A stretch of 6,191 nt of DNA from a virus (Duplodnaviria; Heunggongvirae; Uroviricota; Caudoviricetes). A program made the position numbers and the translations under genes. Location of the stretch: the IMG/VR virus record IMGVR_UViG_2703718872_000025, one strand, 5' to 3'. Below the pieces are notes generated by a model. It was not told where the DNA came from. It saw only the letters and a list, made by a program, of their open reading frames with translations, and made no database searches. Of this stretch, positions 1 to 6,191 are shown piece by piece (the stretch's first letter is position 1; each line of letters begins with the position of its first letter).

Positions 1-1
1 T

Positions 2-2758
2 GCGGCGAAAACGTCAGAAACGAATGCTTCAGCGTCACAACAATCAGCAGCCACATCTGCATCCACCGCGACCACGAAGGCATCAGAAGCTGCGACCTCG
101 GCCCGGGATGCGGCGGCCTCAAAAGAGGCGGCAAAATCATCAGAAACGAGCGCAGCCTCGAGCGCCAGTAGTGCAGCTTCCTCGGCAACGGCGGCAGGAA
201 ATTCCGCGAAGGCGGCAAAAACGTCCGAGACGAACGCCAGGTCTTCTGAAACGGCAGCGGGACAGAGCGCCTCAGCTGCGGCAGGCTCAAAAACAGCGGC
301 TGCGTCGTCTGCCAGTGCAGCGTCAACAAGTGCCGGGCAGGCCTCAGCCAGTGCCACCGCCGCCGGAAAATCGGCAGAAAGCGCTGCATTGTCCGCTTCA
401 ACAGCCACAACGAAGGCTGGCGAAGCCGCTGAACAGGCCAGCGCAGCAGCGAGGTCTGCATCCGCAGCGAAGACATCCGAAACGAACGCGAAAGCGTCGG
501 AAACCAGCGCAGAATCCTCAAAAACGGCAGCGGCATCGTCTGCCAGTTCGGCGGCGTCATCGGCATCATCTGCGTCTGCTTCAAAAGATGAGGCGACCAG
601 ACAGGCGTCAGCAGCGAAGGGCAGCGCCACGACGGCATCCACGAAGGCGACAGAGGCTGCTGGCAGTGCGACAGCGGCAGCACAGAGCAAAAGTACGGCG
701 GAATCCGCGGCAACGCGCGCCGAGACAGCAGCTAAACGGGCAGAGGATATTGCATCCGCCGTGGCGCTTGAGGATGCAAGTACGACGAAAAAGGGGATAG
801 TACAGCTCAGCAGTGCGACCAACAGTACGTCTGAAACGCTGGCGGCAACGCCAAAGTCAGTAAAATCAGCCTATGACAATGCAGAGAAACGTCTGCAGAA
901 AGACCAGAACGGCGCTGATATACCCGATAAGGGACGCTTCCTGAACAACATTAACGCGGTCAGTAAAACAGACTTTGCTGATAAACGTGGTATGCGTTAT
1001 GTGCGGGTTAACGCTCCTGCAGGTGCAACATCTGGAAAATATTACCCTGTTGTTGTTATGCGTTCTGCTGGCTCAGTAAGCGAACTGGCATCAAGGGTCA
1101 TTATCACCACGGCAACGCGAACCGCAGGCGATCCGATGAATAACTGCGAGTTTAACGGATTTGTTATGCCTGGTGGCTGGACTGACAGGGGGCGTTATGC
1201 TTATGGAATGTTCTGGCAATATCAAAACAATGAACGAGCCATCCACTCAATAATGATGAGTAATAAGGGCGATGATTTGCGCTCTGTGTTCTATGTTGAT
1301 GGCGCTGCTTTCCCTGTTTTTGCGTTTATCGAAGATGGCCTGTCAATATCCGCACCTGGTGCTGATCTCGTTGTTAATGATACGACCTATAAGTTTGGGG
1401 CAACAATTCCAGCGACTGAATGTATCGCGGCGGACGTTATCCTTGATTTTAAGAGTGGGCGTGGTTTTTATGAGTCCCATTCGTTAATCGTTAACGATAA
1501 CTTGTCGTGCAAAAAACTTTTTGCCACAGACGAAATTGTAGCGCGTGGTGGTAATCAGATTCGAATGATAGGTGGGGAGTATGGGGCATTATGGCGTAAT
1601 GATGGCGCTAAAACTTACCTGCTGCTTACCAATCAAGGTGATGTTTATGGTGGCTGGAATACATTAAGACCGTTTGCTATTGATAACGCAACCGGCGAAC
1701 TGGTTATTGGAACCAAACTGTCCGCAAGTCTGAACGGTAACGCATTGACAGCAACAAAGCTGCAAACGCCAAGACTGGTTTCTGGGGTTGAGTTTGATGG
1801 TTCAAAAGATATTACTTTAACCGCCGCGCATGTGGCTGCTTTTGCCAGAAGGGCAACGGATACATATGCCGATGCGGATGGTGGCGTTCCCTGGAATGCC
1901 GAATCAGGCGCTTACAATGTCACCCGCTCTGGCGACAGCTATATTCTGGTTAACTTCTATACCGGAGTCGGAAGTTGCCGGACCCTGCAGATGAAGGCGC
2001 ATTACAGAAATGGAGGTCTGTTCTACCGTTCCTCAAGAGATGGCTATGGTTTTGAGGAAGGCTGGGCAGAAGTTTATACCTCGAAAAATCTTCCACCAGA
2101 AAGCTACCCAGTTGGCGCACCAATTCCGTGGCCATCAGATACCGTTCCGTCTGGTTATGCCCTGATGCAGGGGCAGACTTTTGACAAATCTGCATACCCG
2201 AAACTTGCAGTTGCTTATCCGTCAGGCGTGATCCCTGATATGCGTGGCTGGACGATTAAGGGCAAGCCCGCCAGTGGTCGTGCCGTATTGTCTCAGGAAC
2301 AGGACGGCATTAAATCGCACACCCACAGCGCCAGCGCATCCAGTACGGATTTGGGTACGAAAACCACATCGTCGTTTGATTACGGCACTAAATCTACGAA
2401 TAACACCGGGGCACATACACACAGTGTGAGCGGCTCTACAAACTCGGCTGGAGCACACACACACTCACTAGCCAACGTGAACACGGCTAGTGCTAACTCC
2501 GGTGCTGGTAGTGCATCAACAAGATTGTCTGTTGTGCATAATCAAAACTATGCAACATCATCTGCTGGCGCACATACCCACTCACTGTCCGGCACTGCTG
2601 CAAGCGCAGGTGCACACGCACATACTGTCGGTATTGGTGCTCATACGCACTCGGTTGCGATTGGCTCACATGGACACACCATCACCGTTAACGCTGCTGG
2701 TAACGCGGAAAACACCGTCAAAAACATCGCATTTAACTATATTGTGAGGCTTGCATAA
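2..2758 (+). CDS. stf: Side tail fibre protein Stf, 5-prime partial (true start upstream of window)
   Basis: Frame 2 is open from nt 2 to the TAA at 2756-2758; the ORF-track start at 389 is only an in-frame TTG. Translation shows Ala/Ser/Thr-rich N-terminal repeats (AKTSETNA recurring), a phage-tail-fibre-repeat-like segment ([31 protein letters not shown]) and a C-terminus (GAPIPWPSD...KSHTHS...GAHTHS...[11 protein letters not shown]) that I recognise from memory as the lambda Stf / T4 gp37-type tip. No frameshift interrupts the gene within the window. Confidence 0.92.
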
Positions 2759-3342
2759 TGGCATTCAGAATGAGTGAACAACCACGGACCATAAAAATTT
2801 ATAATCTGCTGGCCGGAACTAATGAATTTATTGGTGAAGGTGACGCATATATTCCGCCTCATACAGGTCTGCCAGCAAACAGTACCGATATTGCACCGCC
2901 AGATATTCCGGCTGGCTTTGTGGCTGTTTTCAACAGTGATGAGGCATCGTGGCATCTCGTTGAAGACCATCGGGGTAAAACCGTCTATGACGTGGCTTCC
3001 GGCGACGCGTTATTTATTTCTGAACTCGGCTCATTACCGGAAAATGTCACCTGGTTATCCCCGGAAGGGGAGTTTCAGAAGTGGAACGGCACAACCTGGG
3101 TGAAAGATGCAGAAGCAGAAAAACTGTTCCGGATCCGGGAGGCGGAAGAAACAAAAAACAGCCTGATGCAGGTAGCCAGTGAGCATATTGCGCCACTTCA
3201 GGATGCTGCAGATCTGGAAATCGCAACGGAGGGAGAAACCTCGTTGCTGGAAGCCTGGAAAAAGTATCGGGTGTTGCTGAACCGTGTTGATACATCAACT
3301 GCACCTGATATTGAGTGGCCTACGAACCCTGTCAGGGAGTAA
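2758..3342 (+). CDS. tfa: Tail fibre assembly protein Tfa (194 aa)
   Basis: ATG at 2758-2760 overlaps the stf stop (TAATG), with GAGG 8 nt upstream; 194 codons ending TAA 3340-3342. Translation [24 protein letters not shown]...[39 protein letters not shown]... closely matches my recollection of lambda Tfa, which is also 194 aa. Confidence 0.92.
3178..3297 (+). repeat. Direct repeat copy A (3-prime end of intact tfa)
   Basis: Aligns without gaps to 4227-4346 with 13 mismatches in 120 nt (~89%), in the same reading frame; similarity stops abruptly on both sides. Confidence 0.85.
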
Positions 3343-3356
3343 TCATTGGGATTATG

Positions 3357-3389
3357 CCGCAGCACGTCTTAAGCAAGAACGTGCTGCGG
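3357..3389. terminator. Stem-loop between convergent tfa and methyltransferase genes; possible weak intrinsic terminator
   Basis: ccgcagcacgtctt (3357-3370), loop aagc, then aagaacgtgctgcgg (3375-3389) gives a 14-bp stem with one bulged A. On the + strand a T6 run (3400-3405) follows about 10 nt later; no U-run follows on the - strand. Non-canonical spacing, hence low confidence. Confidence 0.3.
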
Positions 3390-3396
3390 TTGGATG

Positions 3397-4053
3397 CTAT
3401 TTTTTCCCTGAAGCGGAAAACATTACTACAGTACCTTGAACCTTGGTTTTAACATTCTCGAAATGCTCTGAGAGTATATGTGTTAAGCCTTCTTCGGAAT
3501 CTTTTGTGTTTGAAAAGATGCCTTTCTGATTGTAAATGCGCATCAGTTTTTGACCGAAGCTATTGTGCACAACTCCATCGCCAAGAATTGTGGCTCCGTA
3601 TAGAGTTCCATCGTCAGTTAAGGCCTGCGCCGCATTGCGTATTACACAGCTTTTTGTAGATATATTTCCAGGCAGGCAGTGAAGAAGGTAAAACATGGAA
3701 ATGGAATCAAATTGACCATGTAACGCCGCGGGATAAGGTTCAAAAACATCATGGCTAATTTTATGTTTAATTTTTGATTCCCCAGCCCTTGTAGATGCCG
3801 CGTTCAGGCTAGCTTCGTTCAAATCCATTAAAGATATCAGACTACTCTCAGGTACGTGAGTAAGGTAAAACCCAGTTCCAACACCAATATCCAGATGGTT
3901 GTTACCTAAATGTTCCAGAAAGTGTGGAAGAAGGTGTTCCTTTGTAGGACATCCCCATGCAAGCCGATTTGATACTCCCAAAACCCACCAGTCATAAAGC
4001 TTTAGGGTAAGTGGTGTGTAAATTTTAGCCCCATCATCTGTGTTTTTTTTCAT
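3397..4053 (-). CDS. ybcY: Class I SAM-dependent methyltransferase (Rossmann-fold, small-molecule/protein type), prophage cargo; ybcY-like by genomic context
   Basis: The - strand ORF runs 4065 to 3397 (stop TAG, complement of 3397-3399). Two in-frame ATGs: 4065-4063 with no Shine-Dalgarno, and 4053-4051 preceded by GGTGA at a 5-nt spacing, so I take 4053 as the start (218 aa; 222 aa if 4065 is used). Motif I LDIGVGTG (codons at 3871-3885), acidic residue after the second strand (LMDLNE), motif II-like FDSISMFYLLHCL. Gene symbol is assigned from the tfa / MTase(-) / tfa-fragment synteny recalled for DLP12, not from sequence identity, so treat it as provisional. Confidence 0.75.
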   Translation of the reverse strand: MKKNTDDGAKIYTPLTLKLYDWWVLGVSNRLAWGCPTKEHLLPHFLEHLGNNHLDIGVGTGFYLTHVPESSLISLMDLNEASLNAASTRAGESKIKHKISHDVFEPYPAALHGQFDSISMFYLLHCLPGNISTKSCVIRNAAQALTDDGTLYGATILGDGVVHNSFGQKLMRIYNQKGIFSNTKDSEEGLTHILSEHFENVKTKVQGTVVMFSASGKK

Positions 4054-4121
4054 TAATTTCACCATGTTATAGTTTTATTTGTGAATTAAATCAATTATGG
4101 CGATGAATTACAAGGGGTTAA

Positions 4122-4427
4122 ATGCTGCCGCAGCATAGCGATATTGAAATAGCCTGGTATGCTTCGATACAGCAGGAGCCGAATAGCTGGAAGACCGTCA
4201 CCACACAGTTCTACATCCAGGAATTCAGTGAGTATATTGCGCCACTGCAGGATGCTGTAGATCTGGAAATCGCAACGGAGGAAGAAAGATCGTTGCTGGA
4301 GGCATGGAATAAATATCGGGTATTGTTGAATCGTGTTGATACATCAGTAGCTCTGGGTATGAAGCTGTTTGTAACTCATGTTACAGTAACAGCCATTACT
4401 ATCTCGAAGGTGCAAAATGTATATTGA
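4122..4427 (+). CDS. Tail fibre assembly protein C-terminal fragment (tfaX-like remnant; probably non-functional)
   Basis: 101-codon ORF with ATG at 4122 and AGGGG 5 nt upstream. Only residues ~36-75 ([40 protein letters not shown]) resemble Tfa; the flanking sequence is unrelated. Contains direct-repeat copy B. Confidence 0.5.
4227..4346 (+). repeat. Direct repeat copy B (inside tfa remnant)
   Basis: Partner of 3178-3297; 107 of 120 nt identical, ungapped, same frame. Confidence 0.85.
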
Positions 4428-4554
4428 TTTGATATTTTATAAATTTACTTCGAATCTGGCACGTCAACTTTTGATTAAAGTAATATCAGTTTTCGGCGAA
4501 AAAAGGACCGTGTACATGAGACGATTTCATACAAGAATAACAAAAATATGAATA

Positions 4555-4590
4555 TGCTCCCAATGCAATATATGTTTTGCATTGGGAGCA
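4555..4590 (-). terminator. Probable Rho-independent terminator of the hydrolase gene
   Basis: Perfect inverted repeat gctcccaatgcaa (4556-4568) / ttgcattgggagc (4577-4589) with an 8-nt loop, extendable by one T-A pair. On the - strand it begins 20 nt after the hydrolase stop codon and is followed by the U-rich stretch auauucauauuuuuguuauuc. Confidence 0.45.
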
Positions 4591-4610
4591 AATAGCGGAA
4601 TATTTTGAAA

Positions 4611-6095
4611 TTATTGTATTTCTGCTTCAGAATTTCCTGGGCAGTATATATTTTCTATTTTTTGTGGAGTGATCAGGTGATGTACAACTGCTTTATCTAC
4701 ACATAAATTAACTCCGGTGAGAGCTAATGTATGCCCATCACCATTTATTGTTAGTAACGGGCTGGAAAATTTCTCTGCCATCTTACGGGCATTAATCCAG
4801 GGCGTTGTTGGGTCGTATTTGTGTGCTACAAACAGTAAACCAGAGGGCAGAACAGTATTTTTCAGGCGAGTTTTGTTCAGGTCGCTATGTATTGGCCATA
4901 ATTCACAAAAATCAGGTGAATCGGAACGTCCATTGTCAAAGTTAATAGCCGGGAAGGCATTCGCAAGAGCGTCTTTTCGGGATTTTCGCTCTTCTGGTGT
5001 TAATTGCTCATCCCCCTGATCTACACAGAGGATTACCCCCGAAGCATCGCTTGACTCTTCTGAGGCTATCGGAGCACTGAGCGCAGTTTCAATTTCATTA
5101 CTGACAATCCCCTGAGAGAACTGGCGTATGGCAGTTGCAAGGGTTGGCCATGATGAACGCCATAGCAGAAGGTCTGTTGTTAATGATATGAGTTCACCTG
5201 AAGATATATTTTCTCCCTTACTGTCTAATAAAGGTTTGTGATGTAATTTTGATAATAGCTCATGGAAGTGAGTTATTGCCTTATCTCTGTCTGAAGAAAG
5301 CGGGCAACTTTTTGTACGCGCACACCAGGATGCAAAGCGATCAAACGTTTCCTGATAACTCTGTGCCTGTTTGAGTTGCCATGTGAAGTTGTCCTCCAGG
5401 TCATCGATATCGACGACTCCATCAAGAACGATAGATCTTACGTTGTAGGGAAAACGTTCTGCATATAAGGCTGCAATTTGAGTTCCATACGAATACGCCA
5501 CGGCTGTCAGTTGTTTATCCCCCAAGGCTTGCCTAATACGATCAATATCGTATACAGCCTCGTTAGAGCCGATATGGCGAATGACTTCGGCTCCGGTATT
5601 ATGGATACAGGCATTAATTTTATTTAATACTTGTTGCTTTTCGGTTATGTTTTCCTGAGTCTCTGTATCTGATTGCCGGCAGTTTATTGTCGGAGTGGAC
5701 TGTCCGACGCCTCGAGGATCAAATCCAATAATATCCCATGACTCACGAAGATTTGTGACTGGCCAGTCAAAGTTAATATAAGGATTTATGCCTGGTAACC
5801 CGGGACCACCACTTATTATCAGGATACTTCCTTTATGCTTGCTTTTTGCCGGCAATTTTGTCAACGCTAGTTTGACTTGTGATTTTTTTTCATAAGAAGC
5901 ATCTCCGCCTGTGTCTGTATATTTTAATGGAACAGACAAATAACCACATAGTAAGTCAGGAGACGGTTTTTCCTCACCAAACCAGTGGTTGAATTGACTG
6001 GCCATACAGGATTGCCACTGTATCTGCTGGGCAGATACGGTTACTGGTAGAAGTAACGTTAAAACAACTTTGAAATGAGTAATTATTTTTCGCAT
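4611..6095 (-). CDS. Secreted/periplasmic alpha/beta-hydrolase, S33 (prolyl/tripeptidyl aminopeptidase, TAP-like) family serine hydrolase
   Basis: 494 codons from ATG (complement of 6093-6095) to TAA (complement of 4611-4613). N-terminus MRKIITHFKVVLTLLLPVTVSA/QQ looks like a Sec signal peptide with no lipobox. Ordered motifs: IISGGPGLPG (oxyanion-hole region), GFDPRGVGQS, AYSYG nucleophile elbow (Ser codon 5490-5492), then KYDPTTP and GDGHT near the C-terminus as candidate Asp and His of the triad. Confidence 0.85.
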   Translation of the reverse strand: MRKIITHFKVVLTLLLPVTVSAQQIQWQSCMASQFNHWFGEEKPSPDLLCGYLSVPLKYTDTGGDASYEKKSQVKLALTKLPAKSKHKGSILIISGGPGLPGINPYINFDWPVTNLRESWDIIGFDPRGVGQSTPTINCRQSDTETQENITEKQQVLNKINACIHNTGAEVIRHIGSNEAVYDIDRIRQALGDKQLTAVAYSYGTQIAALYAERFPYNVRSIVLDGVVDIDDLEDNFTWQLKQAQSYQETFDRFASWCARTKSCPLSSDRDKAITHFHELLSKLHHKPLLDSKGENISSGELISLTTDLLLWRSSWPTLATAIRQFSQGIVSNEIETALSAPIASEESSDASGVILCVDQGDEQLTPEERKSRKDALANAFPAINFDNGRSDSPDFCELWPIHSDLNKTRLKNTVLPSGLLFVAHKYDPTTPWINARKMAEKFSSPLLTINGDGHTLALTGVNLCVDKAVVHHLITPQKIENIYCPGNSEAEIQ

Positions 6096-6191
6096 TGTGT
6101 CTCTGAATATCGGAATAAAGATAAAATTTGAATATATTGAGGTCTTGTGTTGCGGTAAGAGATTACTGGATTTGCCCCTATATTTCCAGAC

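Follow-up and report, generated by a model that had tools for sequence, protein, structure and literature searches.

A Hip1-like predicted serine hydrolase carried by lambdoid phages and paired with omptin genes in Escherichia coli

The window analysed here, a stretch of 6,191 nucleotides from the Caudoviricetes record IMGVR_UViG_2703718872_000025 of IMG/VR, contains a gene for a 494-residue alpha/beta-hydrolase at 4611..6095 on the minus strand. The gene, whose product is henceforth referred to as the hydrolase, was found to be accessory cargo of lambdoid phages and, in the Escherichia lineage, to lie directly downstream of an omptin gene. The nearest structurally characterised relative of the product is Hip1 of Mycobacterium tuberculosis, with which it shares a predicted fold and catalytic triad. 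With moderate confidence, the hydrolase is interpreted as a periplasmic serine hydrolase that is exported by Sec, contains disulfide bonds, acts as a peptidase with a secondary esterase activity and was selected as cargo together with the omptin.

The open reading frame (ORF) is uninterrupted and begins with ATG, exactly as the initial annotation of the window had it, and its location downstream of stf and tfa on the opposite strand was likewise confirmed. The same annotation had set the low GC content of the gene against 55–60% for tfa and the 5′ part of stf. That contrast held for stf, with 42.4% GC in the hydrolase gene (35% at third codon positions) against 60% in the 5′ part of stf (1-900), but not for tfa, which has 49%; the window as a whole has 47%.

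Family, fold and predicted active site of the hydrolase

Two Pfam families matched the hydrolase above their curated cut-offs: Abhydrolase_1 (PF00561; 4.9e-32, 112 bits against a cut-off of 25.8) and the TAP-like Abhydrolase_4 (PF08386; 1.7e-14, 54.2 bits against a cut-off of 21, residues 386-479). NCBIfam returned only sub-threshold prolyl aminopeptidase matches (35.8 against an equivalog cut-off of 259.75), a score so far under the cut-off that the hydrolase is not considered a prolyl iminopeptidase orthologue. Among all PDB sequences, the best match was M. tuberculosis Hip1 (Rv2224c, CaeA; E 5e-51, residues 21-475), followed by TnmK1 and TnmK2.

An AlphaFold2 model of the hydrolase, built on 44 homologues, had a pLDDT of 90.1 and a pTM of 0.90 and was weak only at residues 1-20, in two short loops and at the last four residues. 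Foldseek ranked Hip1 structures first (E ~1e-34, TM 0.77-0.81), then TnmK1/2, then prolyl aminopeptidases and other S33/S28-type peptidases. All of these matches are alpha/beta hydrolases by fold, and the order of strands and helices in the model is that of the canonical core, with a helical lid at approximately residues 230-410. TnmK1/2 belong to the same fold family and are not known to be hydrolases.

The predicted active site was located in an alignment of the 44 homologues (alignment A1, identity down to 27%), in which S202, D428, H455, G97-P98-G99, Y203 and T431 are invariant, as is G204 of the nucleophile elbow. The predicted nucleophile Ser202 (codon 5490..5492, on the minus strand like the other codons given here) lies in A-Y-S-Y-G (residues 200-204), the predicted triad acid Asp428 (4812..4814) in YDPTTP (residues 427-432) and the predicted triad base His455 (4731..4733) in GDGH (residues 452-455), while the putative oxyanion-hole loop GGPG spans residues 96-99 (5799..5810). 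Ser202, Asp428 and His455 align residue for residue with Hip1 S228 (in GYSYG), D463 and H490, Thr431 aligns with Hip1 Thr466, and the Asp-His spacing is 27 residues in both proteins. The model places Ser202 between strand 196-201 and helix 203-214, Asp428 after strand 420-427, His455 after strand 447-453 and GGPG after strand 89-94; as modelled, all four occupy canonical alpha/beta-hydrolase positions. The elbow meets the pattern Sm-x-Nu-x-Sm, with Ala instead of Gly as the first small residue. In Hip1 the triad is required for protease activity, and an S228A mutant is inactive (PMC4022732). The motifs named in the initial annotation (GGPG, AYSYG, DP and GDGH) were thus all present, and its proposals of an alpha/beta-hydrolase with a TAP-like domain and of a plausible Ser/Asp/His triad were upheld by the two Pfam domains, by the alignment with the proven Hip1 triad and by the position of the residues after the expected strands of the model.

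A Sec (type I) signal peptide is predicted at codons 1-21 (6033..6095, minus strand). In this N-terminus, MRKIITHFKVVLTLLLPVTVSA followed by QQ, a basic n-region precedes a hydrophobic core of 11 residues (Kyte-Doolittle 2.64), and positions −3 to −1 are V-S-A, in keeping with the −3/−1 rule; cleavage is predicted after VSA21, before Q22. Sequence heuristics gave no lipobox and no twin arginine in the N-terminus, and no further hydrophobic segment was found in the mature part (maximum 19-mer Kyte-Doolittle 1.27). Equivalent hydrophobic N-termini were present in 44 of the 44 aligned homologues, and residues 1-20 of the model have low pLDDT (56-59). In several actinobacterial relatives, the N-terminus contains a Cys and resembles a lipoprotein signal.

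Ten cysteines (C30, 50, 139, 163, 258, 264, 357, 397, 465 and 485) are conserved or invariant in alignment A1. Hip1 has 11 cysteines and five predicted disulfides (PMC4022732), and the ten conserved cysteines, with this Hip1-like count, fit an oxidised extracytoplasmic protein. Along with the N-terminal sequence heuristics, the N-termini of the homologues and the low N-terminal pLDDT, they support the signal peptide that had been proposed.

The choice of start codon bears directly on this prediction. Family-conserved W27 and C30 precede Met31, and Met1 is the only start that keeps both. E. coli genome annotations use the 494-aa form. The RefSeq annotation of phage 2G7b (L003 20091-21485) gives 464 aa starting at Met31, and the PHROG profile phrog_20134 also begins at residue 31; since W27 and C30 lie upstream of Met31, both starts remove the signal peptide and a conserved Cys, which makes the start a matter for annotation. 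In a 78% variant of the hydrolase (within locus L106 431-9055), the called start adds ~40 residues that are probably wrong.

Phage carriage and linkage to omptin genes

Positions 1-6166 of the window are 99.98% identical to an E. coli chromosome (L001) at the DLP12 site. The gene order there is lambdoid tail genes, J, lom, stfR, tfa, an S-adenosylmethionine (SAM) methyltransferase gene (minus strand), a tfa fragment, the hydrolase gene (minus strand), ompT (minus strand), envY, ybcH and nfrA. A survey of carriers detected the hydrolase gene in 1250 of 5426 complete E. coli genomes (~23%), mostly at ≥99% identity, with intact copies of ≥99% identity in ~1200 complete genomes; it was also found in 22 IMG/VR contigs and in 11 deposited coliphage genomes, 2G7b, ev243, Turner and PhiR26_1 among them. 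Phage 2G7b has its genes arranged as int, ompT, hydrolase, tfa fragment, methyltransferase and tail fibres. Homology between phage and chromosome stops just beyond ompT, beside int, which places both ompT and the hydrolase gene in the accessory region next to attP. The copy in O157:H7 Sakai (ECs_1662, annotated as 'hydrolase') occupies a different chromosomal site, where it lies beside ompT (ECs_1663) in the terminal part of prophage Sp8, and in a further genome a copy truncated by ISL3 was found in a prophage at another tRNA-Arg site. The hydrolase is genuine phage cargo outside the essential modules. The earlier reading of the gene as prophage cargo therefore stands, since genomes of isolated lambdoid phages contain the gene, in 2G7b between the tail fibres and int/attP.

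Directly upstream of the hydrolase gene, on the same strand, an omptin gene was found in six diverged versions of the locus. Version 1 is the phage/chromosomal OmpT form (L001), version 2 lies near iro and cvi on a ColV-type IncF plasmid (L004; hydrolase 95% and omptin 90% identical), and version 3 carries OmpP on F-like plasmids (L005; hydrolase 75% and omptin 70% identical); versions 4-6 are represented by loci L006-8, L102-3 and L104-5. Across the six versions hydrolase identity is 75-95% and omptin identity 70-90%, and the pairwise identities of the two genes are correlated (Pearson r = 0.875 for six versions, the pairs not being independent). Hydrolase dN/dS between the versions is 0.12-0.23, with dS up to ~1.1, and every motif and all 10 cysteines are retained in all six. 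This co-divergence and the low dN/dS indicate that the pairing is old and that both genes are under purifying selection.

The linkage is also evident from counts. The ompT-hydrolase junction was present in 1234 complete genomes, compared with 1227 genomes having at least 80% of the hydrolase query, and an omptin gene was upstream in 20 of the 21 viral loci having upstream sequence. The 2.5-kb OmpP unit was found, to at least 80% of its length, on 156 or more plasmids. Plasmid F itself (NC_002483.1, L129 32322-34861) has ompP and then an intact alpha/beta-hydrolase paralogue, and F+ laboratory strains already carry, and perhaps express, a version of the omptin-hydrolase module. In the genome of the window, the omptin gene sits beyond an insertion sequence (IS), outside the 6191 bases. 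Omptin pairing is a feature of the Escherichia lineage. Among the 80 loci listed by a family-alignment scan of contigs, almost all from Actinomycetota, no additional enterobacterial setting emerged, and tblastn gave no omptin in any of them.

Comparison of the window and L001 with K-12 (L002) by blastn delimited the exchanged segment. K-12 is common to the window over 2904-4351, after which a 1529-bp appY segment (L002 7106-8634) replaces the 1880-bp hydrolase segment (L001 11953-13832, equivalent to window 4352 to ~6231, with 4352..6166 inside the window; left breakpoint 4351/4352). Homology to K-12 returns 50 bp past the ompT stop codon. One slot, flanked by the tfa fragment (tfaX) on one side and the ompT terminator on the other, is occupied by either the hydrolase cassette or the appY cassette. 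In CFT073-type strains, the tfa fragment and the hydrolase gene have been lost through a clean deletion of 1976 bp, with an 8-bp overlap at the junction. The deletion keeps the spacer to 29 bp before the hydrolase ATG, and this remnant indicates that the hydrolase-bearing arrangement is the older one in these strains. Three contexts downstream of ompT have been described, namely appY, 'ymcE' 186 bp downstream (one isolate) and ybcY directly (Desloges et al. 2019). The 'ymcE' of that report is probably the hydrolase gene under another label, because the distance of 186 bp matches the ompT-hydrolase spacer.

In the window, an IS2-like element of the IS3 family was inserted 71 bp upstream of the hydrolase ATG, cutting the gene off from ompT. 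The end of the element occupies 6167..6191, and homology to all other genomes stops at 6166. A 35-nt match connects the end of the window to an IS3-family transposase region, and its terminal repeat, TGGATTTGCCCCTATATTTCCAGAC, is presumably that of IS2. The 71 bp that remain of the 186-bp spacer (6096..6166, minus strand) include a weak Shine-Dalgarno sequence, AGAGA, 5 nt before the ATG. This IS junction was absent from the complete E. coli genomes searched. IMG/VR contig L107 (1-705) has an independent IS2-like end at a distance of 11 bp; its orientation is the same, and the transposase ORF reads toward the hydrolase gene. The two insertions may reflect a hot spot within the spacer, or outward transcription may originate in the IS.

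Transcription of the hydrolase gene has been recorded by others. In a time-course array of Sakai, ECs1662 mRNA changed by log2 −2.53 at the stationary-phase transition and ompT by −2.72 over 4.6-5.5 h, with both genes assigned to QT cluster 1 (PMC2241611); this signal indicates that the hydrolase gene is transcribed in the lysogen during growth. The transcript may arise by read-through from ompT or from a weak promoter belonging to the hydrolase gene. At the other end of the gene, the hairpin that the initial annotation had claimed as its own terminator is real (4555..4590, minus strand). It consists of a perfect 14-bp stem with 7 GC pairs and an 8-nt loop (−24.3 kcal/mol), begins 20 nt past the hydrolase stop codon and is followed by T-rich AUAUUCAUAUUUUUG. 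Two terminator-like sites were observed in 3300-6191 against 2.3 expected in shuffles, and the site count alone is not significant, whereas the position and stem length of this hairpin are. It is kept in the module copy on ColV-type plasmids, where homology to the window begins at 4527.

The hydrolase also appears in recent work on Shiga toxin-producing E. coli (STEC). A 472-aa alpha/beta hydrolase, WP_249926694.1, was reported as a STEC marker with an OmpT link in STRING and a second allele 81% identical (Velez et al., Vet Sci 2026, PMC12945212). Its frequency was 81.6% among STEC against 15.8% among other genomes, and an extracellular location was predicted for it; the report does not mention Hip1, catalytic residues, phage carriage or omptin pairing (PMC12945212). 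The hydrolase cluster assembled here holds a 472-aa truncated member and 81-82% variants, and the STEC marker is very probably this hydrolase. No functional study of the hydrolase was found in the literature on ompT, omptin or ompP together with hydrolase, or under ECs1662/Z1930.

Proposed mechanism and rival explanations

The hydrolase gene would be the second gene of a two-gene omptin-hydrolase module travelling as accessory cargo of lambdoid phages. The precursor would be exported by Sec and cut after Ala21, and the ten cysteines would be oxidised in the periplasm to approximately five disulfides. Catalysis by the mature enzyme of ~52.5 kDa would rely on Ser202-His455-Asp428 beneath the helical lid, the oxyanion hole being formed by the GGPG loop and Tyr203. 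As Hip1 and the Streptomyces tripeptidyl aminopeptidases suggest by analogy, the enzyme would most likely trim or cut peptides and unfolded protein N-termini, with a side esterase activity. Its site of action would be the cell envelope, which it would share with the co-inherited outer-membrane protease.

Several observations weigh against parts of this interpretation. The nucleophile elbow is A-x-S-x-G and not G-x-S-x-G. Hip1 was first called a carboxylesterase and TnmK1/2 are not known to be hydrolases, so the chemistry cannot be read from the fold alone. The transcription unit is ambiguous, given that a GC-rich hairpin, which fails the terminator criteria of the scan, lies right after the ompT stop codon and that a simple scan found no consensus sigma-70 promoter in the intact 186-bp spacer of L001. 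QT cluster 1 is very large, which makes co-clustering with ompT weak evidence of co-regulation. Relatives at ≤54% identity have no omptin neighbour, being alone between transposase genes (Salmonella, Serratia plasmids and a metagenome contig) or beside Fic and EptA (Budvicia). The 78% variant L106 also has no omptin neighbour and lies between the gene for a PerC-like regulator and a series of genes for envelope and LPS modification, namely DUF535/VirK, a polysaccharide deacetylase, a glycosyltransferase, a sulfatase-family protein and a lipid A acyltransferase. Such omptin-free relatives indicate that the enzyme does not strictly need an omptin.

The main competing explanation of the chemistry is an enzyme acting chiefly as an esterase or lipase on envelope lipids, lipopolysaccharide (LPS), lipoproteins or host lipids, and not on peptides, which we regard as unlikely. 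Hip1 does hydrolyse p-nitrophenyl butyrate, and its PDB depositors named it 'Carboxylesterase A'; the L106 variant lies within a cluster of LPS/envelope-modification genes, and the Budvicia homologue is two genes from an EptA-type phosphoethanolamine transferase. Each of these envelope-gene contexts is, however, a single observation, whereas the dominant conserved neighbour is a protease, and the nearest characterised relatives by sequence and fold (Hip1, the Streptomyces tripeptidyl peptidases and the prolyl aminopeptidases) are peptidases. A lactonase with a quorum-quenching role, another small-molecule enzyme or a non-hydrolytic enzyme like TnmK would agree with the 'putative lactone hydrolase' label in the 2G7b and ev243 records (LR595866, LR597639) and with the rank of TnmK1/2 as second-best structural matches. 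The label is unsupported, as no lactonase family was among the Pfam or NCBIfam matches, and TnmK1/2 are only 19-22% identical and belong to actinobacterial biosynthetic clusters. No such genes were found near the hydrolase gene and its full triad is invariant, and we consider enzymes of this kind highly improbable.

Two further explanations concern the reason for carriage. The accessory position between the tail fibre genes and attP/int, shared with many moron genes, would suit an anti-phage or superinfection-exclusion function, and the PADLOC-DB 'TAP-like protein' model PDLC01094 (C3a206) matches the hydrolase over its full length (3.2e-55). This match reflects the same family-level similarity as that to Hip1, and no other defence-system component lies beside the hydrolase gene in the loci examined; it was rejected as a defence lead because it is generic and without system partners nearby. 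PHROGs labels the family only 'unknown function', an exported periplasmic enzyme would be an unusual defence effector, and the module is equally conserved on plasmids, all of which make a defence role very unlikely. It is more improbable still that the gene is a hitch-hiking, decaying passenger without current function. Its deletion in CFT073-type strains, its replacement by appY in K-12, the ISL3 truncation in one prophage and the IS that separates it from ompT in the window would agree with decay. They are contradicted by the low dN/dS across deep divergence, by the intact copies in complete genomes and by transcription in Sakai.

Beyond the proposed exported peptidase, a joint role of the two proteins can be suggested tentatively, although we think it improbable in this specific form: omptin and hydrolase would constitute a two-tier system of envelope proteolysis, transferred as a single unit by E. 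coli mobile elements. At the cell surface, the outer-membrane omptin would cleave cationic peptides or proteins of the host, and the periplasmic TAP-type peptidase would destroy fragments entering the periplasm or process a shared substrate. Together they might give antimicrobial-peptide resistance or a colonisation advantage, possibly explaining the STEC enrichment. Were this the case, an obligate genetic partner, found even on plasmid F, would have escaped notice in decades of research on OmpT, OmpP and ArlC-type omptins. The pairing with every E. coli omptin lineage examined offers a testable hypothesis for omptin biology and antimicrobial-peptide resistance. The link to Hip1 supplies ready assays, a Ser-to-Ala control and existing inhibitor chemistry. 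The gene is a common one: about one quarter of complete E. coli genomes have it, O157:H7 is among its carriers, as are plasmid F and ColV-type virulence plasmids, and strong enrichment in STEC is reported.

Neighbouring features and comparison with known systems

The stf frame is open from base 2 and runs off the left end of the window; its N-terminal part (2-900) is a long Ala/Ser/Thr-rich low-complexity region, and seven HxH motifs (AGAHTHS-type repeats) lie near the C-terminus (2318-2677, plus strand). The 258-aa ORF at 24-800 stems from an alternative frame in this GC-rich stretch and is an artefact. An Rfam IS009 match (3101-3299, plus strand; 225.7 bits, E 3e-56) falls wholly inside the tfa coding sequence, and probably reflects a family built on this prophage sequence and not an independent RNA gene. 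The tfa fragment at 4122-4427 (Caudo_TAP, C-terminal part only, equivalent to K-12 tfaX) repeats the 3′ end of the intact tfa (3166-3297) with 87% identity and looks like the scar of a tail-fibre cassette exchange. Between the two lies an intact 222-aa class I SAM-dependent methyltransferase (3397-4065, minus strand), which is the pseudogene ybcY in K-12, occupies the same place in isolated phages and belongs to phrog_2132 ('unknown function'). Two ORFs inside the hydrolase gene, 4717..5019 (plus strand) and 5273..5425 (minus strand), were called antisense and have no evidence of their own.

Among characterised proteins, Hip1 offers the closest comparison. Both proteins combine an alpha/beta core, a helical lid and a TAP-like C-terminal part, and both are envelope-exported, as predicted in the case of the hydrolase. 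They also share the order and spacing of the triad, the GGPG loop, DP(A/T)TP with its conserved Thr, and many conserved cysteines. The hydrolase differs in having AYSYG in place of GYSYG, and in being encoded by a mobile phage or plasmid gene that is paired with an omptin; its predicted plain Sec signal sets it apart from the several actinobacterial relatives with a lipoprotein-like N-terminus. It is a homologue and not an orthologue of Hip1, given the identity of 27-28%, the different phylum and the mobile-element location; the Hip1 substrate GroEL2 and the immune-modulating role of Hip1 are not transferable to the E. coli protein. Hip1 has itself been assigned to the Streptomyces tripeptidyl aminopeptidase family (PMC4022732). 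TAP, SlpD and SlpE of Streptomyces lividans, the founders of PF08386 (MEROPS S33), have the same Pfam domain pair and are extracytoplasmic, a likeness drawn through the Pfam domains and the family of Hip1.

Within E. coli, the hydrolase of plasmid F and F-like plasmids (WP_072145210.1 and relatives) is a paralogous version with ~75% amino acid identity, the same motifs, 10 cysteines and an omptin upstream on the same strand. It differs in its conjugative plasmid carrier, in a 92-bp spacer with a strong AGGAG and in having OmpP as the omptin. The hydrolase gene also resembles the classical lambdoid morons bor and lom and the K-12 appY cassette in its accessory location in the phage late/b region, lower GC content, own terminator and variable presence. 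Unlike these, it encodes an enzyme and not a membrane protein or regulator, and it travels with ompT, which itself lies in the phage genome beside attP.

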